Part shown: positions 4,933 to 60,227 of the stretch, piece after piece
Position numbering within the stretch: position 1 is the first letter of the stretch
How the letters are laid out: each line of letters starts with the position of its first letter
Assembly (NCBI GenBank): GCA_964478705.1
Contig: CAYZIR010000005.1
Location: forward strand, 508-64,507
Source: an uncultured Candidatus Saccharibacteria bacterium
GTDB taxonomy: Bacteria; Patescibacteriota; Minisyncoccia; Phycocordibacterales; EsbW-18
DNA length: 64,000 nt
Direction of reading: 5' to 3'
Notes under the pieces: generated by a model
The model's database searches: none
Told to the model about the DNA's origin: nothing
The model's input: the letters and a program-made list of their open reading frames with translations, nothing else
Made by a program: the position numbers and the translations under genes

Positions 4933-4950
4933 ATGTGTGCTTGGGGGCGG

Positions 4951-5110
4951 TTCGGTCACGAATCACTAAGTATTTTGCTCGCTTTGCTCACAAAATCCTA
5001 AGTGTTCTCGACCCCGCCTCGCCCCGCTCTGCGGGGCTCCGGCCTTCGAATCCTTCCCGAAGCTAAAACAAAAGTCGCCGAATGCTGACGCATCCGGCTC
5101 CTTTGTTTTT
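4951..5110 (-). repeat. ~160-bp tRNA-3'-flanking element bounded by 14-bp direct repeats of the tRNA-Phe 3' end
   Basis: GTGCTTGGGGGCGG at 4937..4950 and 5111..5124. Interior has hairpin CAAAACAAAGGAGCCGGATGCGTCAGCATTCGGCGACTTTTGTTTTAG and module GGATTCGAAGGCCGGAGCCCCGCAGAGCGGGGCGAGGCGGGGTCGAGAACACTTAGGATTTTG, homologous to the element 3' of tRNA-Leu(TAA) at 24758..24916. Confidence 0.7.
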
Positions 5111-5111
5111 G

Positions 5112-5185
5112 TGCTTGGGGGCGGATTCGAACCGCCGACCCTCTGCTCTTCAGGCAGATGCTCTAACCAACTGAGCTACCCAAGC
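5112..5185 (-). tRNA. tRNA-Phe (anticodon GAA), CCA not encoded
   Basis: Cloverleaf GCTTGGG/TA/GCTC..GAGC/TCTGC-CTGAAGA-GCAGA/GGCGG-TTCGAAT-CCGCC/CCCAAGC-A read on minus strand. Confidence 0.9.
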
Positions 5186-5186
5186 A

Positions 5187-5270
5187 TAATTCTTCTCTAA
5201 CCAATCCCGACGCTTCGGTCGGGACCCCGACCTCCGCCTTGCGGAGCGTCGGGGCTGAGCTACCCAAGCA
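5187..5270 (-). repeat. Partial tRNA-Phe 5' copy (nt 1-15 plus 16-25) interrupted at D-loop position 15/16 by a 50-nt GC-rich hairpin
   Basis: CTGAGCTACCCAAGCA at 5255..5270 duplicates 5171..5186. Insert TCCCGACGCTTCGGTCGGGACCCCGACCTCCGCCTTGCGGAGCGTCGGGG at 5205..5254. Near-identical insert at tRNA-Thr (60162..60211) and a related one at tRNA-Arg (5844..5903). Confidence 0.75.
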
Positions 5271-5828: not shown

Positions 5829-5916
5829 GCCCTCATAGTTCAAAGCCGACGCTACGAAGTAGGTCTACTCCCCGATTCACGCCTCGCGTGGCGTCGGGGC
5901 TGATAAGAAGGTGTAC
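5829..5916 (+). repeat. Partial tRNA-Arg 5' copy (nt 1-15) followed by a 60-nt GC-rich hairpin insert
   Basis: GCCCTCATAGTTCAA (5829..5843) is identical to tRNA-Arg nt 1-15; insert AGCCGACGCTACGAAG...GGCGTCGGGGCTGA (5844..5903) shares the ends AGCCGACGCT / GCGTCGGGGCTGA with the Phe and Thr inserts. Confidence 0.7.
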
Positions 5917-5918
5917 GC

Positions 5919-5990
5919 GCCCTCATAGTTCAACGGATAGAACAACTCCGTCCTAAGGAGTGGATCTAGGTTCAATTCCTGGTGAGGGCA
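5919..5990 (+). tRNA. tRNA-Arg (anticodon CCT)
   Basis: GCCCTCA acceptor pairs with TGAGGGC; anticodon stem ACTCC/GGAGT; loop GTCCTAA. Confidence 0.85.
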
Positions 5991-6188
5991 CAAAACAAAG
6001 GAGTCGGATGCGTCAGCATTCGGCGAGTTTTGTTTTGTAGCTTCACAACAGGGATTGAAAGTGAGTGCGGGGCACCCCGCCAGTAGGCGGGGTCGCACGA
6101 ACAGGGCCGAGCGGAACGAGGAGCGACGGCGACGAGTGAGCGCTTGGCCAATTCCTGGTGAGGGCACAAAACAAAGGAGTCGGATGCG
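5991..6188 (+). repeat. tRNA-Arg 3'-flanking element bounded by 39-bp direct repeats that include the tRNA 3' end
   Basis: AATTCCTGGTGAGGGCACAAAACAAAGGAGTCGGATGCG at 5974..6012 and 6150..6188. Interior carries hairpin CAAAACAAAGGAGTCGGATGCGTCAGCATTCGGCGAGTTTTGTTTTG and motif GGAGCGACGGCGACGAG. Confidence 0.7.
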
Positions 6189-9321: not shown

Positions 9322-11058
9322 TTACATCTCCCCTGTCTCCGGAGCGATAGGAGTAGCAGTCTTCCAGAAGCGTGCTTTGATGGTTGTCGAAAATTCAACA
9401 AGCTCCTGATTGCGAAGAAGCTGTAAGGTTGCAACCCAGAAGAGAATGCCACAGACACCGGCGATGAGGCCTTCTACAAACACATGAAGCGCTTGTGACA
9501 GGTCGAAATACGGTGTGAGGAGATTGAGAGCGACGTACGATGCTCCAGCGCCGATAATCGATGCTGAGGCGCTCTGCCAAAATGTTGTATGAACCGAACG
9601 TGGTATGTGCCCGCCGAAGTCACGTCTGAATAAAATCCAAAATATCATTGCACTCGCAATCAAGCCCAGTGAATACACGAAAGCGATAACCAATATTGTT
9701 GTCCCACCAACATCGCTGATGCGAAGAAGAGATTCAAAGAAATATCGAATCATCGGTACCTGCTCAAAAATATTCCGAGCACCAAATGCCATCACGACCG
9801 TTGCAATCGATGTCGTCATAGTGATGATGAGCGGTCGAGCGGTCATACCAGCAGCGTAGTATGCTCGTACGAATAAAAGGATGATGCCGTGCGCAATCAA
9901 TGACACCAGAAAGAGTGCCAGCGCCGCTGCGGTCAAGCGCGTGTCAGCCCAATCGAATGCCCCTGACCCAAGAAGCGTGCGAACGATATGTGCACGAAGC
10001 ACCACCATGAGTGTGAGTGCTGGGAATGACCAGAATATGATGTGACGAAGTGCACTCACCAGCTGATCGATAAATGCTTCACGTTCTCCGTTTACAAACA
10101 ATTTTGAGAGTGTTGGGAATGCTGCGACTGAATATGCAACGCCAATTAACGTGAGCGGTGCCATATAGAGATTCGATGCGAAGGTGAAAATGGTCACTGA
10201 ACCCGGAGCAAGGGTTGATGCGATACCAACGAGCACGAGAAGCACAACCTGGTTGAGAGCAAGTGTGAGCGTTCGAGGAAGTGACACGGAAACCACGTTC
10301 CATATACGACGCAAATTGAAAGTGATAACGGGGCGCGGGAGAAGTCGCTCATGCACCACAACGGGAATCTGAATGAGCGCGTGGAGCAAAGCACCACAAA
10401 CGACACCCCATCCGATACCCGAGAGGCCATAGCGCGGATACAGGAAGATAATGCCAGCGATAATGCCGATGTTGTAGACAATCGGTGAAAGGGCGTAGAC
10501 GATAAACCGCCCCGAGAGCTGTGTGACACCCGCAAGAATGTTTGAGAAACCGAGAAATATCGGCGACAGCAGGAGAATCCTCGTGAGATGTGTAAACTGC
10601 TCTATCTCTGCCGAGCCGAACCCAGGATAGAGATACCGACCGAGTTGTGGTGCAAAGAAAAAGAGGAGTGCGCTCGCGAGGGTAATAAAAAATATGAAAA
10701 ACGACGTAATCTCAGAAAGAAAATGGCGCGCACGCTCCTTCCCTTCGCTCGCGATAATACTCTCAAGAAATGGAATCAGAACAAAGAGCGATACGATTGA
10801 CGCAATGGAAGCAAAAATGAAATCAGGAATACGAAAGGCGGCATAGTAGACGTCGAGTGTTGAGCCAGCACCGAAGAGATGTGCCAGCATACGATCCCGC
10901 ACCAACCCGAGGACTTGCGAAACAAGGGAGAAAATAGCAATAACATACGCGGCTGCATGCATACCGCCGATTGTCTGTGATAGAAGGGATACGATTCGAC
11001 GGACCATACGTGTCTGTGAACGTAATAATAGCAAATACAAGGCTTTCTGTAAGTACAC
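9322..11058 (-). CDS. murJ: Lipid II flippase MurJ/MviN
   Basis: 14-TM MOP-family protein with LGLVRDRMLAHLFGAGSTLDVYYAAFRIPDF signature. Start may be the internal Met at 11007. Confidence 0.85.
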   Translation of the reverse strand: MYLQKALYLLLLRSQTRMVRRIVSLLSQTIGGMHAAAYVIAIFSLVSQVLGLVRDRMLAHLFGAGSTLDVYYAAFRIPDFIFASIASIVSLFVLIPFLESIIASEGKERARHFLSEITSFFIFFITLASALLFFFAPQLGRYLYPGFGSAEIEQFTHLTRILLLSPIFLGFSNILAGVTQLSGRFIVYALSPIVYNIGIIAGIIFLYPRYGLSGIGWGVVCGALLHALIQIPVVVHERLLPRPVITFNLRRIWNVVSVSLPRTLTLALNQVVLLVLVGIASTLAPGSVTIFTFASNLYMAPLTLIGVAYSVAAFPTLSKLFVNGEREAFIDQLVSALRHIIFWSFPALTLMVVLRAHIVRTLLGSGAFDWADTRLTAAALALFLVSLIAHGIILLFVRAYYAAGMTARPLIITMTTSIATVVMAFGARNIFEQVPMIRYFFESLLRISDVGGTTILVIAFVYSLGLIASAMIFWILFRRDFGGHIPRSVHTTFWQSASASIIGAGASYVALNLLTPYFDLSQALHVFVEGLIAGVCGILFWVATLQLLRNQELVEFSTTIKARFWKTATPIAPETGEM

Positions 11059-11094
11059 AAAAGCCCCCGTGTATGCGAGGGCTTCTATGACTAT

Positions 11095-11509
11095 GGTTGT
11101 GCACCTGTAAGCCGAATTCTGTTATCGACAAGCATGTGTCTAGGACAAAGATTACTCAATGCCTCAAGCGGCTCTTCCCGCGAACGGGACACGGCCTTGC
11201 ACGTAGGTAAGGATTTTGCCGTTTCACCTCATTGTTGCCAATGAGACACCCCATGAGATAGTGATGCCCGACTTCTTACTTATTTGGACTCTTATCAAAG
11301 TCCGATTACCAAGTAGTTCAGACACCTTTATCTCACGGGGTCCCTATCCTTTCGGAATCGGGCGTTTCTGCTCGCACCTCTATGCTCACGCACGACGGGC
11401 GTTACCCGCTACCGTCCTCTCGGCATCGCAGAGCGATGACGGACGTGTTCGGACTTTCCTCATCCTCCATAGCTTTAGCGACGGAGGATGCGCTTGCCCG
11501 ATGACAACC
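11095..11509 (-). ncRNA. rnpB: RNase P RNA (bacterial type A)
   Basis: Minus strand reads ..GGGCAAGCGCATCCTCCGTCGCTAAAGCTATGGAGGATGAGGAAAGTCCGAACAC.. (P2/P3/P4 5' strand), GGGTAACGCCCG, GGTGAAACGGCA, and ..ACAGAATTCGGCTTACAGGTGCACAACC (P4 3' strand, P1 closing). P1 GGTTGT pairs with ACAACC. Followed by hairpin GAAGCCCTCGCATACACGGGGGCTTTTGTG (terminator, 11060..11090). Confidence 0.85.
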
Positions 11510-11582
11510 GTATAGAGTATACAATATTTCCTTGTCTCTGGGAAGAGAGTTGTGTATTTAAACATACAGAGCGAGCTTCTCT

Positions 11583-11659
11583 TTTTGAAAGCCTTTGGAG
11601 GAGCGACGGCGACGGAAAGAACAAAAGCCCTGCAGGGCTTTTGTGTGCTTTCAAAAAGA
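11583..11659 (-). repeat. 70-nt structured element just 3' of nrdB (copy 1 of 2; second copy at 51244..51321)
   Basis: Outer stem TTTTGAAAGC/GCTTTCAAAA encloses conserved GGAGGAGCGACGGCGACGG and inner terminator hairpin AAAAGCCCTGCAGGGCTTTTGT. Copy 2 has compensatory outer stem TTCTCTAAGC/GCTTAGAGAA. Confidence 0.7.
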
Positions 11660-11675
11660 TGAAGTGAGCGACGCT

Positions 11676-12683
11676 CTACCACTCCAACTGTCCTCCGGTC
11701 TTGTATTCGGTTACGCGCGTTTCGAAAAAGTTCTTCTCTTTGCGCGCATCCATAATTTCCGACATCCATGGAAACGGATTTTTCGTCCCATAGACAGTCT
11801 TCAATCCAATGCGTTCAAGGCGACGGTCAGCAATGTGTTCAAGATATTCTGCGATTGACTGTGGCGTGAGCCCGATGATGCCCTTTGGAAGCGCTTCATA
11901 CGCGTACTGTTTCTCAAGCTCAACGGATTTTTTAATTTTCTCGGTGATGTCTTGCCTAAACGACTCGGTCCAGATTTCCGGATTTTCAGCGACAATCGCA
12001 TTGATGAGCTCTGAACCGAATGCGAGGTGAATCGTCTCGTCGCGAAGGATGAATTGGAATTGTTCACCAATACCAATCATCTTGTGTCGGCGAAGCATTG
12101 AGAGCATCATCGCAAATCCTGCGTAGAAGAAGATACCCTCCATGATGACGTAGAAACCAACCAAGTCGTGCACGAAACGCTGGATATTCTCCGTGCTGTC
12201 TGTTTTGAATGTGTCATCGAGCACCGATTTGGTGAATCCGAGCACAAAGTCATCTTTTTCTTTAATTGAAGGAATCGTTTGATACATGTTGTACACCTCG
12301 TCGGGATTCAATCCCAATGTGTCACAACAGTAGATGAACGTGTCAGTGTGAATCGCCTCTTCATATGCCTGACGCAGGAGGTACTGACGGCATTCTGGGT
12401 TTGTGATGTGCTTGTAGATGGCGAGTACGATGTTGTTTGCGGTCAATGACTCGGCGGTGGAGAAAAAGCCGAGGTTGTACATAATCATATGACGTTCATC
12501 GTCGGTGATTCCCTTCTCTCCGACCGCCTTCCACATCTCAACGTCCTGTTGCATGGACACCTCTTCAGGAACCCAGTTGTTCGCAACGCCGGTTTTATAG
12601 TATTTACGTGCCCACTGATACTTCATCGGAAGAATCTTGTTTGGGTCGATACCTGATGCGTTGATGATTTGTTTTTGGGCCAT
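11676..12683 (-). CDS. nrdB: Ribonucleotide reductase class Ia small (beta) subunit
   Basis: Ferritin-like di-iron R2 fold (EEAIHTDTF.., ..ILRDETIHLAFG..). Confidence 0.9.
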   Translation of the reverse strand: MAQKQIINASGIDPNKILPMKYQWARKYYKTGVANNWVPEEVSMQQDVEMWKAVGEKGITDDERHMIMYNLGFFSTAESLTANNIVLAIYKHITNPECRQYLLRQAYEEAIHTDTFIYCCDTLGLNPDEVYNMYQTIPSIKEKDDFVLGFTKSVLDDTFKTDSTENIQRFVHDLVGFYVIMEGIFFYAGFAMMLSMLRRHKMIGIGEQFQFILRDETIHLAFGSELINAIVAENPEIWTESFRQDITEKIKKSVELEKQYAYEALPKGIIGLTPQSIAEYLEHIADRRLERIGLKTVYGTKNPFPWMSEIMDARKEKNFFETRVTEYKTGGQLEW

Positions 12684-21182: not shown

Positions 21183-21381
21183 TCATGTAGCGCGAAACAT
21201 GTAACATGTAGCGTGCAACACAGAATACGGAGTACAGAGTACGGAACATAGAGTACGGAGTACAGAGTACGGAACATAGAGTACGGAGTACAGAGTACGG
21301 AACATAGAGTACGGAACACGGAGTACGGAGTATGGAAACTCCAAACTCATGTACGCGTTACATGTTACATGTTTCGCGCTA
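21183..21381. repeat. 25-bp perfect inverted repeat enclosing a 28-bp tandem repeat array
   Basis: CATGTAGCGCGAAACATGTAACATGTA (21183..21209) and its reverse complement TACATGTTACATGTTTCGCGCTACA (21357..21381). Between them AGAGTACGGAGTACAGAGTACGGAACAT occurs three times plus partials. Confidence 0.8.
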
Positions 21382-21401
21382 CACGCTCTGTGCTCTGTCT
21401 T

Positions 21402-24667: not shown

Positions 24668-24755
24668 GCCCGGGTGATGGAATTGGTAGACATACAGGAC
24701 TTAAAATCCTGGGGCCGTGAATTCGGTCGTGTGGGTTCGATTCCCACCCTGGGCA
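24668..24755 (+). tRNA. tRNA-Leu (anticodon TAA), long variable arm
   Basis: GCCCGGG acceptor, loop CTTAAAA, variable arm GGGCCGTGAATTCGGTCGTG, TTCGATT. Confidence 0.88.
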
Positions 24756-24757
24756 CT

Positions 24758-24916
24758 CGGAGGAAATTTAAACATTTTGATCGACGGTGGGAATCGAAGG
24801 CCGGAGGCGCGCCATTGGTCTGAGCGCCGACCTGCCTGCCGGCAGGCAGGGGCGGGGTCGAGAGTACTTAGAATTTTAGGCGCATAGCGACTAAAATACT
24901 TGAGTTGCTCGTGACC
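24758..24916 (+). repeat. 159-bp tRNA-3'-flanking element bounded by 19-bp direct repeats of the tRNA-Leu(TAA) 3' end
   Basis: GATTCCCACCCTGGGCACT at 24739..24757 and 24917..24935. Interior ..GGAATCGAAGGCCGGAGGCGCG..GGGGCGGGGTCGAGAGTACTTAGAATTTTAGGCGCATAGCGACTAAAATACTTGAG..CGTGACC is homologous to the tRNA-Phe element. Confidence 0.75.
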
Positions 24917-24960
24917 GATTCCCACCCTGGGCACTTACAGAATATTTTCAAAATAGGGCA

Positions 24961-25405: not shown

Positions 25406-25570
25406 CAAAACAGAGAGCCGAGTGCGTCAGCATTCGGCAATTTTGTTTTGCGCGATTGAGAGAGGGCTCGAAGGGCGGAACCCCGCAGAGCGAGGTGAGC
25501 CGGGTCGAGAAATTTTTACGAGCGACGGCGAGTAAAAAAATGTTCTTGGCCGAATTCTCTCGGCCAAAGC
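25406..25570 (+). repeat. tRNA-Leu(TAG) 3'-flanking element with degenerate direct repeat
   Basis: Hairpin CAAAACAGAGAGCCGAGTGCGTCAGCATTCGGCAATTTTGTTTTG, module GGGCTCGAAGGGCGGAACCCCGCAGAGCGAGGTGAGCCGGGTCGAGAAA, motif ACGAGCGACGGCGAG. Degenerate repeat TCTCTCGGCCAAAGC (25556..25570) versus tRNA 3' TCTCTCGCCCACAAAAC. Followed by a perfect hairpin 25569..25597. Confidence 0.65.
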
Positions 25571-39204: not shown

Positions 39205-42108
39205 TTACCCCTCCCTCACCACGAGGTTAAGGACCTTGTTCTTAATATAGACAATTTTGGCTATATCCTTGCCGTTAAGCCATTTTTCGATGTTTTCCTC
39301 GCCCCGAGCCAAGGCAAGAACGGTCGCTTCCTCGGTATCTCGAGAGCAGGTTATCGTTCCCCTGACCTTTCCATTGACCTGAATGGCTATAACGACCTCA
39401 GCCTCAACAAGCTTGTCCGAATCGAAGGTAGGCCACAAAGCCTCGTGAACTGATGACGTATTGCCCATGCTCTCCCAGAGCTCTTCCGTGAGGAACGGTG
39501 CGAATGGTGCCAAAAGGAGTAGGAGCGTAGTATATGCCGTGCGAGAAACAGCCGTCTCTTTTTCGATTGCATTCGTTAGAATCATGAGTTGCGAGACTGC
39601 TGTGTTCATACGAAGTGCTTCGATATCCTCCCCCACTTTCTTGATGGTTTGATTGAGGACCGTTTCAAGCTCAGGCGACAACACGACGTCCTCGACTCTT
39701 TCCTGCAGACGCGCAACGCGTTCAAGAAAGCGTCGTACACCAACGAGTCCATCGGTTGACCACGCGATCGCTTGATCGAACGGTCCCATGAACATCTCAT
39801 ACGTGCGGAGCGCATCTGCACCAAAGCGTTCAATAATGTCATCCGGGTTTACCACGTTCCCTTTCGACTTACTCATTTTCTCCCCGCCTTCGGCGAGAAT
39901 GAGTCCGTGGCTCGTACGCCGTTGGTATGGCTCAGATGTTGGAACAACGCCAATGTCGTAGAGAAACTTATGCCAAAAGCGCGAATAGAGAAGGTGAAGC
40001 GTTGTGTGCTCCATACCACCGTTGTACCAATCAACCGGAAGCCAGTGCTCAAGTTTTTTCTTGTCGGCGAGTACTTCCGCATTCTTCGGATCGCAGTAGC
40101 GAAGGTAATACCATGATGAACCTGCCCAGTTTGGCATAACATCGGTTTCTCGTTTCGCATTACCACCGCACGACGGACATGTCGTATTGACCCACTCATC
40201 CATGTTCGCGAGAGGTGAATCCCCTGTGTCAGTTGGTTCGTAGCGCTCAACGTGTGGTAGTTCTACCGGAAGGTCGGATTCGGAGACCGGCACCCATCCG
40301 CACGATTCGCAGTTGACCATTGGAATCGGTTCGCCCCAGTAGCGTTGACGTGAGAAGACCCAATCACGGAGTTTATATTTCGTCGTCCATGTGCCACCAA
40401 CTGCTTCAGTTATTTTTTTCCTTGCATCTTCACTGGCTAGACCATCAAATTGTTCAGAGTTGAGAAGTATTCCTTCACCAGTGTAAGATTGCTGACCGCC
40501 CACATAAAACTCCGCATATTTTTTGTGGTGTGGCCACGTAATCGTTGAAATAAGTTTGTCCTTTGAAACAACGATGAGTTCGTGTCTCCCCTCTTCTACT
40601 TCTGACTGTGAACGTTCTGTGGAGTTTAGAATAATTTCAATGGCAGGGCCGAGTGTTCGCTGATTTTTATTTTTTGTGTGTCGATATCCATGACAAGAAA
40701 TCATTGAGGTCATTGAATGCATGTTCACTTCAAAATCTGTGAATCCTGTTTCTTCAATAACCTCTCTGCGAACTGCGGTCAGAAGATCCTCGCCATCTTC
40801 AACTCCTCCACCCACCAAGTGGACATGATCTCCATCTTTAAGAAGGTAGAAGTTCCCCATGGTATCGTGAATGATTGCATCAACAGTTCGTCGGTTTAAC
40901 GTTTCGAGACCGGCACGCTCTTGGTGTATTCCCGCCCCTATTTCTTGATATGCGACTACCTGTCGCATAGGCAAATTAAATTTCTGTGCAAACGCGAAAT
41001 CACGTTCATCGTGTGCAGGGACCGCCATCACCGCACCGGTGCCGTACGAACCAAGCACGTAATCCGCAACATACACAGGAATCTCTTCATTGTTCGCAGG
41101 ATTGATTGCTGTAATACCTTCGAGCCGAACACCAGTCTTTTCTTTCCCTTCCGCGGTACGTTCCATTTCTTCCTTATTCTTTGCCTCTTCGATATATCGC
41201 AGAATCTCTTCTCTGTTCTTTATCGACTCATGACTAGCGACTAATGACTGCACCAAGGGGTGCTCAGGTGCTAAAACGATGTAGGTAGCGCCGAAGATGG
41301 TATCTGGTCTGGTTGTAAAAACAGTGATTTCTTTTTTCTCGCCCCCAGTAGCTAGAACCTGGAATCTGATCTCAGCTCCTTCGCTCTTGCCAATCCAATT
41401 ACGTTGTCCTGCTTTAGCCCGCTCAATATAGTCAACGGTGTCGAGGTCATCGTAGAGGCGTTCGGCGTATTTTGTGATCGCAAGCATCCATTGCTCTCGT
41501 TCGCGTTTCTCAACCTCCGTCCCACATCGCTCACACTTACCATCAACAACCTCTTCGTTTGCGAGACCGATTTTATCTTTCGGACACCAATTAATGGGAA
41601 CTTTTGATTTGTATGCAAGATCGTGTTTGAAGAGTTGCAAGAAAATCCATTGCGTAAAGCGGTAGTATGCGGGGTCAGTTGTGTTTACCTCACGCTCCCA
41701 ATCAAAGGAGAGTGCTAAGCGCTTCATCTGTGCGCGGTAATTGTCGGTATTTTCTTTTGTTACCTCACGTGGATCGCGTCCGACCTTGATTGCATAGTTC
41801 TCTGTAGGAAGACCGAAGGCGTCCCAACCAATTGGATAGAGCACATTCTCCCCTTGTCTGCGACGCTTACGAGCAACGACGTCGAGTGCAGTGTAGCCAC
41901 GAACATGACCGACATGGAGCCCTTCTCCTGACGGAAAGGGAAATTCGACGAGTAAGTATGTTTTCTTTTTATCCGCGCTATCGGACGCTTTGGGGGCACT
42001 CTTCTCAAAGATTTCGCGCCATTTCTCTTCAATCTGTTTGGAATCGTATTCGCGCATGAATAGCTTATAGCTTCTAGGTACGAGCGTGTAGGTAGGGACA
42101 TCATACAA
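39205..42108 (-). CDS. leuS: Leucyl-tRNA synthetase with inserted NUDIX hydrolase domain
   Basis: HVGHVRGY (HIGH), KMSKSKGNVV, CP1 editing domain (TTRPDT..YVLGSYGTGAVMAVPAHDERDFAFA). Inserted ~150 aa (aa ~385-535, nt ~40506..40956) contains Nudix box GGGVEDGEDLLTAVRREVIEETG. Confidence 0.9.
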   Translation of the reverse strand: MYDVPTYTLVPRSYKLFMREYDSKQIEEKWREIFEKSAPKASDSADKKKTYLLVEFPFPSGEGLHVGHVRGYTALDVVARKRRRQGENVLYPIGWDAFGLPTENYAIKVGRDPREVTKENTDNYRAQMKRLALSFDWEREVNTTDPAYYRFTQWIFLQLFKHDLAYKSKVPINWCPKDKIGLANEEVVDGKCERCGTEVEKREREQWMLAITKYAERLYDDLDTVDYIERAKAGQRNWIGKSEGAEIRFQVLATGGEKKEITVFTTRPDTIFGATYIVLAPEHPLVQSLVASHESIKNREEILRYIEEAKNKEEMERTAEGKEKTGVRLEGITAINPANNEEIPVYVADYVLGSYGTGAVMAVPAHDERDFAFAQKFNLPMRQVVAYQEIGAGIHQERAGLETLNRRTVDAIIHDTMGNFYLLKDGDHVHLVGGGVEDGEDLLTAVRREVIEETGFTDFEVNMHSMTSMISCHGYRHTKNKNQRTLGPAIEIILNSTERSQSEVEEGRHELIVVSKDKLISTITWPHHKKYAEFYVGGQQSYTGEGILLNSEQFDGLASEDARKKITEAVGGTWTTKYKLRDWVFSRQRYWGEPIPMVNCESCGWVPVSESDLPVELPHVERYEPTDTGDSPLANMDEWVNTTCPSCGGNAKRETDVMPNWAGSSWYYLRYCDPKNAEVLADKKKLEHWLPVDWYNGGMEHTTLHLLYSRFWHKFLYDIGVVPTSEPYQRRTSHGLILAEGGEKMSKSKGNVVNPDDIIERFGADALRTYEMFMGPFDQAIAWSTDGLVGVRRFLERVARLQERVEDVVLSPELETVLNQTIKKVGEDIEALRMNTAVSQLMILTNAIEKETAVSRTAYTTLLLLLAPFAPFLTEELWESMGNTSSVHEALWPTFDSDKLVEAEVVIAIQVNGKVRGTITCSRDTEEATVLALARGEENIEKWLNGKDIAKIVYIKNKVLNLVVREG

Positions 42109-42171
42109 CAGAAAAACCCGAACATCGAGATGTCCGGGTTTTTCTAGAAGCTAGCACCTACAACCGAGCCC

Positions 42172-43195: not shown

Positions 43196-43223
43196 TTGAC
43201 AAATAAATCTAGGGGTGTATAAT
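43196..43223 (+). promoter_or_regulatory. Consensus sigma-70 promoter TTGACA-N16-TATAAT
   Basis: gTACTTGACAaataaatctaggggtgTATAATgg; no ORF downstream before the terminator at 43766. Confidence 0.6.
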
Positions 43224-43229
43224 GGTCTT

Positions 43230-43797
43230 GTTGAGGTCGGCTTCGGTGAGCTTAGAAAGAAAGCTCTACGCCTTCCTTGGCATCACAGGTCGCCCCCCGG
43301 CCAGATTGTCTGCCGAGGGTCTACGCCTGCCACCGCGCCAACGGAAAAACACGGCGCCTGTTCTTTCAAAAAGGAGTCACACATTGAAGAAACGTTAGCA
43401 GTACGTTAGCCACGGAATCGTTCCGTGCTAAGGTTCCGTTCGCCTTAATCCCCTTTTAGGGAGAGAAAAGGAACGGAAACTAAACGTCGGACCAACGATA
43501 CACCTAAAATGGGTGACGGAGCTAACGATGCCAGGTGTGACTCGGCGCCGGAGATGAAAAGGGTGGCGCTGTATAAATAAATAACCCTGACTGTGACGGT
43601 AGTAGTGTTGTGTCGAATGCCGACAGAGGTTAAGACCCATCGGCAAACAGCCACGAGTGTGGCAAGACCAACAACATGAAACCGCAAAATCCTAGATCGT
43701 GCCTTACCGGTACGGCGACGGGTCGCAATATCTCCCCCCCCCACTAAATCTTACCGAAAGGAAGTGCCCCCGGCTCAACGAGTCCGGGGGTTTTCAC
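43230..43797 (+). ncRNA. Candidate ~570-nt structured non-coding RNA of unknown class
   Basis: Consensus promoter upstream, strong terminator GCCCCCGGCTCAACGAGTCCGGGGGTTTT at 43766..43794, no ORF with an SD. Internal hairpins CACGGAATCGTTCCGTG and GGTTCCGTTC...GGAACGGAAAC. Lacks tmRNA T-loop and SRP motifs. Confidence 0.4.
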
Positions 43798-50163: not shown

Positions 50164-51225
50164 ATGACATATCTCAATATTCAGACGTCTCAGACCAGCA
50201 AAGATACTGCAAAACAGGTTCTCCGAGGAGTCGGGGCACTTGTCTTTGTTGTTGCGATTGTATGGGTTGGCATGCAGAGCTTCCGTGTACTTCCAGGCGT
50301 TCGTCACCTCTTCGCAAATGCACTCGTCTCAGTACAGTCGTTCTTCTCACCTGAAGAGCGCATCGTTGTATCGGTTATCGACAGCCAAGTTGTTGTCGAT
50401 AAACCATTCAACATTACATGGGAACACCGAGGTAAGGAGGATCGAGGTTCATACACCATGATGTATGAGTGTCGTGACTCAGTGCACCTTGCACGTGTTT
50501 CATCAACAGGAGGAGAATCAACAATCTTCTGTAACACTGAAGTCCCTATCCTTGGAGACGAAACGAACCTTTCCCTCATTGCGCGTGGCAACGTCATCGG
50601 CGCTGTTGATGTTCCCTTCTATGTTCGCTTCACGCGAAATAATACATCGGTCATCAGTGAAGAAGGTTCTACTGCTATCCGTGTTCAAGAAATGTACTTC
50701 GATACCGGCATCGCAACATCAACCGATAGCACTGCAACAACACCCTCAACTCCATCAACACCAGTGACACCAGTTCCTGGAACCCCAACAACGGTCACAA
50801 TTCCTATCGTGACATCACCGACCTCAGATCCAAACGGTGAAGCCGACCTCTCAATTCGCATCATCGCAGTTGGTCTTGTCGATAAAAACAGTGGTTCGTT
50901 CAGCGAACGCAATGAAATTCCAAAAGACCTCCCATCAAACAAGCGTGGTGCAATCAAATTTGAGATTGAAAACAAGGGCACAAAAAAGACTGGTGACGAT
51001 TGGAACTTCTCTGCGAAACTCCCAACATCACCGTCGTACACGTACACATCGCAATCACAGCAGGACCTCTACCCTGGCGACAAGATCGAATTCATCATTG
51101 GTTTCGACAAGCTCGTGAATAAAGATGAGGCAAGCTATACCATCACGGTTGATCCGAAAGATGAGATTGACGAATCAAACGAAAAGAATAACTCAATCAC
51201 ACGCACGATCGAAATTGATCGATAA
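50164..51225 (+). CDS. Membrane-anchored protein with Thr/Pro-rich linker and C-terminal CARDB-like domain
   Basis: N-terminal TM; TPSTPSTPVTPVPGTPTT linker; C-terminal beta-sandwich pattern (ADLSIRII..IKFEIENKGTKKTGDDWNFSAKL). Confidence 0.45.
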   Translation: MTYLNIQTSQTSKDTAKQVLRGVGALVFVVAIVWVGMQSFRVLPGVRHLFANALVSVQSFFSPEERIVVSVIDSQVVVDKPFNITWEHRGKEDRGSYTMMYECRDSVHLARVSSTGGESTIFCNTEVPILGDETNLSLIARGNVIGAVDVPFYVRFTRNNTSVISEEGSTAIRVQEMYFDTGIATSTDSTATTPSTPSTPVTPVPGTPTTVTIPIVTSPTSDPNGEADLSIRIIAVGLVDKNSGSFSERNEIPKDLPSNKRGAIKFEIENKGTKKTGDDWNFSAKLPTSPSYTYTSQSQQDLYPGDKIEFIIGFDKLVNKDEASYTITVDPKDEIDESNEKNNSITRTIEIDR

Positions 51226-51243
51226 AAATCGCTCGTCAGTTAC

Positions 51244-51321
51244 TTTCTCTAAGCACACAAAAGCCCCGGGTGGGGCTTTTGTTCTGTCCGGCGCCGTCGC
51301 GCCTCCCAAGGCTTAGAGAAA
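51244..51321 (+). repeat. 70-nt structured gene-3' element, copy 2 (homolog of 11583..11659)
   Basis: TTTCTCTAAGCACACAAAAGCCCCGGGTGGGGCTTTTGTTCTGTCCGGCGCCGTCGCGCCTCCCAAGGCTTAGAGAAAG. Confidence 0.7.
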
Positions 51322-51397
51322 GAACAGACTCGCTCTCGTGTTGGAATACAGAATACAACACCAACCCGAGTCTCTGCTGCTGAGCACTCGCTATAAT

Positions 51398-60150: not shown

Positions 60151-60227
60151 TATTCTACCAAAGCCGACGCTTCGGTCGGCTCCCCGACCCTCGCCCTGCG
60201 AGGCGTCGGGGCTGAGCTAAAGCGGCA
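60151..60227 (-). repeat. Partial tRNA-Thr 5' copy interrupted at D-loop 15/16 by a 50-nt GC-rich hairpin (sibling of the tRNA-Phe insert)
   Basis: CTGAGCTAAAGCGGCA at 60212..60227 duplicates 60128..60143. Insert AGCCGACGCTTCGGTCGGCTCCCCGACCCTCGCCCTGCGAGGCGTCGGGG (60162..60211) is ~85% identical to 5205..5254. Confidence 0.75.

Follow-up and report, generated by a model that had tools for sequence, protein, structure and literature searches.

The DNA 3' of nrdB in the window (the whole stretch of 64,000 nt that was analysed) carries a structured element that is present again about 40 kb away, and the question raised by this pair is whether it represents a bidirectional terminator, a selected RNA structure or a repeat spreading as DNA. 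Both copies reported by the sequence-only reading were found, within 1-3 nt of the coordinates given there. The core of the first (W1) was set at 11581-11658 of the minus strand and that of the second (W2) at 51243-51322 of the plus strand, each in the direction of its upstream gene. The two copies are homologous and mutually inverted (inverted repeat of 68 nt, 78%), and in the direction of the upstream gene they show the same order: a 5' arm, ACAC, the hairpin AAAAGCCC(C)-loop-(G)GGGCTTTT, GTTCTNTCCGNCGCCGTCGCNCCTCCNAAG and a 3' arm. For the inner hairpin pattern AAAAGCCC-N-GGGCTTTT, the window has exactly two occurrences, against 0 expected. The arms of the outer stem are CTTTTTGAAAGC/GCTTTCAAAAAG in W1 and CTTTCTCTAAGC/GCTTAGAGAAAG in W2. 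The compensatory changes previously claimed for this stem, then described as 10 bp long, were confirmed, since 3 of its 12 pairs are changed on both sides (U-A to C-G, G-C to C-G and A-U to U-A) and none on one side only. In addition, whichever strand is taken, W1 and W2 fold far better than their shuffled versions (z -4.1 to -7.4).

Both cores belong to longer elements. The whole W1, with a 5' motif, a three-way junction and a 3' tail, extends over 11549..11675 (minus strand), between the nrdB stop codon (11676-11678) and the promoter of rnpB. On this strand, the 5' motif AGCGTCGCTCACTTCAT (11659..11675; family consensus TCGCTCRT) begins directly 3' of the stop codon and is followed by the 5' arm of the outer stem, P1, at 11647..11658 and by the hairpin P2, ACAAAAGCCC-UGCA-GGGCUUUUGU (11621..11644), which is terminator-like with its A-tract, GC stem and U-tract. 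Afterwards come the hairpin P3, GUCGC-CGUC-GCUCC (11600..11613), which is degenerate (two of five pairs broken) and contains a 12-mer common to tRNA-linked elements, the 3' arm of P1 (11581..11592) and the 3' tail AGAAGCTCGCTCTGTATGTTTAAATACACAAC (11549..11580). The whole W2 is located at 51226..51360 (plus strand), directly after the stop codon (51223-51225) of a CARDB-domain gene and facing the convergent gyrB. Its P1 arms, at 51243..51254 and 51311..51322, enclose P2, ACAAAAGCCCC-GGGU-GGGGCUUUUGU (51257..51282), and P3, GGCGC-CGUC-GCGCC (51290..51303), in which 5 of 5 bp are paired.

W1 had been described as lying 3' of nrdB. It does adjoin this gene, but the region is the spacer between nrdB and the RNase P RNA gene, as identified by an Rfam match (rnpB, 11091-11509, minus strand; RF00010, 93.1 bits, E 7e-29). 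The score is below the Rfam gathering score of 100 and, as a consequence, the gene is missed by the standard scan. It is flanked by W1 and by a partial third copy at 11043-11090 (plus strand), which consists of a sequence similar to the P1 5' arm, CTTTCTGTAAGT, ACAC and a P2-like hairpin, without P3 and without the 3' arm; viewed from the minus strand, it is a terminator-like hairpin directly after rnpB. A 24-nt inverted repeat, 88% complementary, encloses rnpB, its arms lying at 11043-11066 (in the partial copy) and 11635-11658 (in W1); in a relative (L091), rnpB lies within a perfect 24-nt repeat (11016-11039 and 11671-11694) whose sequence is unrelated. These 24-nt repeats may form a processing stem around the RNase P RNA.

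Two other Paceibacteria metagenome lineages yielded four additional copies, three of them in L125 (ERZ1292619) and one in L003/L115 (L115 being assembly GCA_964600545.1). The pattern CTTTNNNNAAGYACACAAAAGCCC gave no match in the GTDB species genomes and 7 loci in the JGI metagenomes, among which L003 alone is a true copy; it is located 3' of a cell-wall hydrolase gene and has entirely lost the P1 3' arm. Homologues of this hydrolase led to L125, a groundwater contig with 3 full copies in 20 kb, located 3' of the hydrolase gene (L125a), of rpsG (L125b) and of rpmB (L125c), and also to L124, in which the copy is cut off by the contig end. The census comprises only five full and two partial copies. 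Covariance models R1 and R2 gave no additional copies in the window, searched with filters off, or in 1.66 Mb of fetched loci, and weak matches of these models in L120 and L123 were plain terminators only. No copy was present at 80 nrdB loci of GTDB genomes, nrdB being a poor guide to relatives because of its wide horizontal transfer. Two pattern scans of viral contigs yielded chance seed matches only, BLAST searches of phage and plasmid collections gave no match to the element, and the 3' tail motif was never found apart from the junction. When the element was compared with Rfam 15, no family matched and the best E-values, far under threshold, were those of terminator-containing leaders; with the entire window, the gathering score was reached by tRNAs only. 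Homology within the W1/W2 family extends for about 120 nt beyond the hairpin (nhmmer E 1e-31 to 1e-37). The window itself is core-genome DNA of a Paceibacteria assembly; its GyrB and NrdB are closest, at 86-88% identity, to proteins labelled Parcubacteria, Paceibacterota or Pacebacteria. On sequence evidence, W1 and W2 are members of a small dispersed family of ~130-150 nt in one Paceibacteria (Patescibacteria/CPR) sub-lineage. Elsewhere in the window, a strong promoter-like site (TTGACA, 17 nt, TATAAT) precedes ~170 nt of GC-rich non-coding sequence (43197-43400, plus strand) that had no Rfam match and may encode an unannotated RNA, and a 14-nt tandem array of ~12 units, rich in GAGTACGG, lies at 21186-21383, flanked by a 28-nt inverted repeat that is 96% complementary.

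All full copies share a three-way junction, into which each folds independently (z -4 to -8). P1, of 12-17 bp, is nearly perfect in 5 of 5 full copies and highly variable in sequence between them. It encloses P2, the hairpin that had been taken for a terminator, and P3, a 5-bp helix with a CGUC loop (GGCGC/GCGCC, AGCGC/GCGCU or AGUGC/GCACU) which is decayed in W1 and L003. The helices are linked by conserved unpaired junction bases (CCGUCC/CCUCCC), and the junction is flanked by the homologous 5' motif TCGCTCRT and by a 3' tail, CTCGCT..GTTTAATACAAATAC, giving the full element its ~130-150 nt. MAFFT alone misaligned the helices (alignment A3). In the model-fitted alignments used, which are biased towards the tested structure, pairing across the three helices was kept in 94% of the cells of six copies from three lineages, compared with 77.6% in shuffles (0 of 500 as high), and 16 of 27 pairs were changed on both sides, against 5.5 expected (0 of 500 shuffles). 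Controls with slid partners gave 41-57% paired, and single-sequence folds, which are independent of the model-fitted alignment, agree with it. The covariation proposed from two copies is consequently real and much stronger with six, with double changes in P1, P2 and P3.

The position of the element with respect to genes is strict. At 5 of 5 distinct loci (six gene-element pairs) it starts 0-10 nt past a stop codon and runs the same way as the gene, and this gene-wise orientation holds on both chromosome strands within one replichore. At L125b the 5' motif encodes the last codons of S7 and its stop (PKKSAR*, compared with PKKK* in L130). The sequence-only reading had raised the question whether copies always sit between convergent genes. 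This is so at only one of the five loci; at the remaining four the flanking genes are co-directional, and the idea therefore fails. Because it starts near the stop codon and runs in the same direction, we propose that the element is transcribed as the 3' UTR of the upstream gene, and the gene-linked orientation favours a role at transcript level. The downstream neighbours are unrelated to each other: rnpB, an FG-GAP protein gene, fusA, an HD hydrolase gene and, in the case of W2, none, gyrB being convergent.

The sequence-only reading had described a 70-nt element with an inner terminator hairpin and had suggested a test of bidirectional termination. A simple bidirectional terminator of 70 nt did not hold across the family. 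P2 has a 4-5 bp GC core followed by UUUUGUUCU in W1, W2 and L003, and only in these copies is it terminator-like; in L125a it is made of AT pairs only, without a GC stem, and in L125b and L125c it lacks a proper U-tract. Strong separate terminators are present after L125a and L125c. Given these missing features and the separate terminators, termination is not the conserved reason for the fold. Moreover, a simple consensus terminator scan flagged the P2 of neither W1 nor W2. Termination at P2 would precede synthesis of the P1 3' arm, so that P1 would form only on read-through RNA. Elsewhere in the window, a plain terminator and a promoter-like -10 element are located inside an unrelated 10-bp outer stem, TAGCTTCTAG/CTAGAAGCTA (42072-42164, minus strand), and terminators closed by an outer stem may recur in this genome.

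Presence of the element is patchy. Gene order is kept and the element is absent in L090 and L091 (nrdB 87% identity) and in L092-L095 (gyrB 86-88%). Orthologous filled and empty sites, a mobility criterion for MITEs, were found in three comparisons. W2 is present 3' of the CARDB gene, where L092 and L095 have plain terminators and no element. L125b and L125c are filled, whereas L130 has no element between rpsG and fusA (a gap of 10 nt, compared with 162 nt in L125) or 3' of rpmB. Finally, L124 is filled and L120 and L123 are empty, although all three encode an identical hydrolase protein. The hydrolase 3' end is empty in L130 and L133 too. At their empty orthologous sites, the relatives have plain terminators instead of the element. 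Such patchiness between near-identical strains is as expected of a mobile DNA repeat. Terminal inverted repeats, another criterion for MITEs, are provided by the P1 arms in the five full copies, the arm sequence differing between copies. As a candidate target-site duplication, every copy has TCGCTC-like direct repeats at a distance of 7-11 nt from the 5' arm and 5-7 nt from the 3' arm, on the outer side; as they are identical at all loci, they could be part of the element or reflect a target preference. No transposase, integrase or HUH protein was detected by Pfam among the 20 window ORFs scanned.

The sharing of a motif with elements at tRNA 3' ends was confirmed. The window contains the 12-mer GAGCGACGGCGA at exactly three places: at 11601, inside W1, at 6121..6132 (plus strand), as the apex of a predicted hairpin in a tRNA-Arg-linked insert, and at 25520..25531 (plus strand), again as the apex of a predicted hairpin, in an element linked to tRNA-Leu(tag). 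A search for the related 16-mer gave 3 matches against 0.46 expected. As regards the tRNA genes themselves, those for Arg, Leu-taa and Phe are each followed by a related insert of ~175 nt, at whose end the 3' end of the tRNA is duplicated (5973-6012 = 6149-6188; 24738-24769 ~ 24916-24947; 5110-5137 ~ 4936-4963), and these inserts look like miniature integrative elements targeting tRNA 3' ends. A conserved element of 42-97 nt, GGTC..CCCCGA..CGTCGGGGCTGA, also adjoins the tRNA-Phe, tRNA-Arg and tRNA-Thr genes (5217-5258, 5862-5903 and 60174-60215).

Several explanations of these observations were weighed. Two ordinary intrinsic terminators alike by chance would account for the similarity of P2 in the window copies to plain terminators at orthologous sites of relatives, but the ~120 nt of homology outside the hairpin and the covariation in three helices refute this, leaving it a negligible probability. 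An independent small RNA gene, or a cis-regulatory leader of the downstream gene, would agree with the conserved structured core and loops and with the AT-rich tail of W1 adjoining the rnpB promoter. However, there is no promoter-like site before the element, which begins at the stop codon, the genes downstream differ from copy to copy and in L125a and L125c a terminator intervenes before the next gene, so that this origin is very improbable. The element could also be a neutral quasi-palindrome, functional neither as RNA nor as DNA, whose arms stay complementary because one is copied from the other by template-switching within the hairpin during replication. Strict Watson-Crick complementarity without wobble pairs speaks for this process, as do the decay of the shortest helix, P3, in W1 and L003 and the complete loss of the P1 3' arm in L003. 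Nevertheless, three helices, the junction bases and the CGUC loop have persisted at 50-85% identity in three lineages, and the fixed position and orientation at stop codons would be left unexplained; we regard a purely neutral repeat as decidedly unlikely.

The strictness of the pairing bears also on the level at which the fold acts. The covariation had been taken to argue for an RNA structure rather than a DNA repeat, a conclusion that is not sustained: 129 of 133 cells are Watson-Crick, no G·U pair is present on the sense strand and a single-stranded DNA fold is equally predicted, DNA parameters giving the same structure with z -5 to -8. The non-Watson-Crick cells of the five full copies include two A·C, equivalent to G·U on the other strand. 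With pairing of this kind, constraint on RNA and constraint on DNA are indistinguishable. It was thus considered that the single-stranded DNA fold is what matters, as a mobile or recombination site recognised by structure, like attC or the IS200/IS605 palindromes, whose hairpin a recombinase or HUH transposase would read. The pairing statistics and the DNA fold are consistent with such a site, and so are the variable presence among near-identical strains, the apex motif common to the tRNA-linked inserts in opposite transcriptional orientation, and the attC-like location directly after stop codons in fixed orientation. In addition, P1 differs between copies of one genome, which makes recognition by shape likelier than by sequence. 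On the contrary, orientation follows the upstream gene on both strands of one replichore and not replication, the neighbours are core genes (nrdB, rpsG, rpmB) without cassettes, the stem ends lack the attC core sites RYYYAAC/GTTRRRY, and none of the window ORFs scanned encodes an integrase or HUH protein. For these reasons a structure-recognised DNA site appears doubtful. We also consider it unlikely that the three-way junction is a dedicated Paceibacteria 3'-end signal, a structured module inserted at stop codons for recognition by one particular factor. In that case RNase III, RNase P or a ribosome-associated protein, for example, would recognise the CGUC loop and the CCGUCC/CCUCCC junction bases, and the element would set the 3' ends of mRNAs or uncouple adjacent genes in these reduced genomes. 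If this were true, the recognition hairpin GCGACGGC, common to the tRNA-linked inserts, would suggest one machinery moving and reading both.

The explanation that we prefer, with a probability of about one half, is that the element is a dispersed repeat of 3' UTRs, similar in kind to SPRITE, ERIC and Correia and co-opted as a gene-end structure. The family would have spread by insertion or recombination, in the manner of a MITE or of the pneumococcal SPRITE, and its copies would have been retained for an action of the fold at the end of the gene. The P2 of W1 and W2, together with the U-tract, could stop transcription in either direction; in read-through transcripts, P1 would close the junction, and the resulting very stable 3' structure could serve as an exonuclease block or a processing site. 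Some data count against this explanation: the AT-only P2 of L125a, the negative terminator scan, the small copy number and the opposite orientation, relative to transcription, of the shared GCGACGGC hairpin apex in the tRNA-linked elements. Strict Watson-Crick pairing without sense-strand G·U, which is unusual for an RNA under selection, counts against it as well.

As far as the Rfam and literature searches show, little is known about gene-end signals in Patescibacteria. This family offers a compact motif whose covariation is well supported and which is placed, with unusual strictness, at stop codons and in gene direction. It could help to examine how transcripts are ended and kept apart in these reduced genomes and how small non-autonomous elements move in them. 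It also advises caution, as compensatory changes alone are no proof of RNA function and a DNA hairpin is here equally compatible with them. The Rfam and literature searches gave no description of an interspersed structured repeat of this kind in Patescibacteria. The stop-codon-linked repeat family is real and, on these searches, previously undescribed, and it is new among interspersed palindromic or terminator-like repeats, the mechanism outlined above being a proposal.

Comparison with known systems places the element as follows. The P2 of the window copies, with A-tract, GC stem and U-tract, resembles a bidirectional intrinsic terminator; however, such a terminator needs no P1, P3, 5' motif or tail, and the P2 of L125 has no terminator features. 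Palindromic elements derived from IS200/IS605 carry separate subterminal hairpins at both ends, and REP sequences are hairpins of 20-40 nt, with an orientation tied to replication. Identity with them was rejected, as the hairpins of the present element are nested in one junction and both chromosomal orientations occur within 8 kb in L125 and within one replichore in the window. Integron attC sites are defined by R'' RYYYAAC and R' GTTRRRY at the stem ends and by cassette arrays near intI. The element shares with them the location after a stop codon, the fixed orientation, a variable sequence over a conserved palindrome and strict Watson-Crick pairing. Nevertheless, it has no R''/R' core sites, cassette array or intI: its stem ends are CTYTTT.../...AAARAG and its neighbours are the core housekeeping genes nrdB, rpsG, rpmB and gyrB, so that attC identity was also discarded.

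The closest likeness in kind is to small mobile repeats. SPRITE is a dispersed repeat of ~100 nt with a terminator-like hairpin near gene 3' ends, proposed to be a co-opted terminator, and it agrees with the element in short AT-rich terminal inverted repeats, a narrow lineage and no identified transposase partner (PMC3049150). SPRITE, however, has only one duplex, of 18 bp, with a long U-rich tract after it, and convergent genes flank half of its copies. The element differs in its three-way junction, in which two hairpins are enclosed and the junction bases are conserved, in belonging to a different phylum and in lying between co-directional genes at 4 of 5 loci. ERIC and Correia (CREE/NEMIS) elements are MITE-type intergenic repeats, imperfect palindromes of 100-160 nt which are co-transcribed with flanking genes and, folded as long hairpins in the RNA, influence the stability or processing of the mRNA; their distribution between strains is similarly patchy (PMC3184786). 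They have terminal repeats conserved in sequence and a TA target duplication, while in the element the outer arms vary, the direct repeats at the flanks are TCGCTC-like and the location is linked to stop codons. Adjacent to stop codons and with a three-armed fold kept despite sequence drift, the element resembles the known small mobile repeats more than it does a plain terminator.
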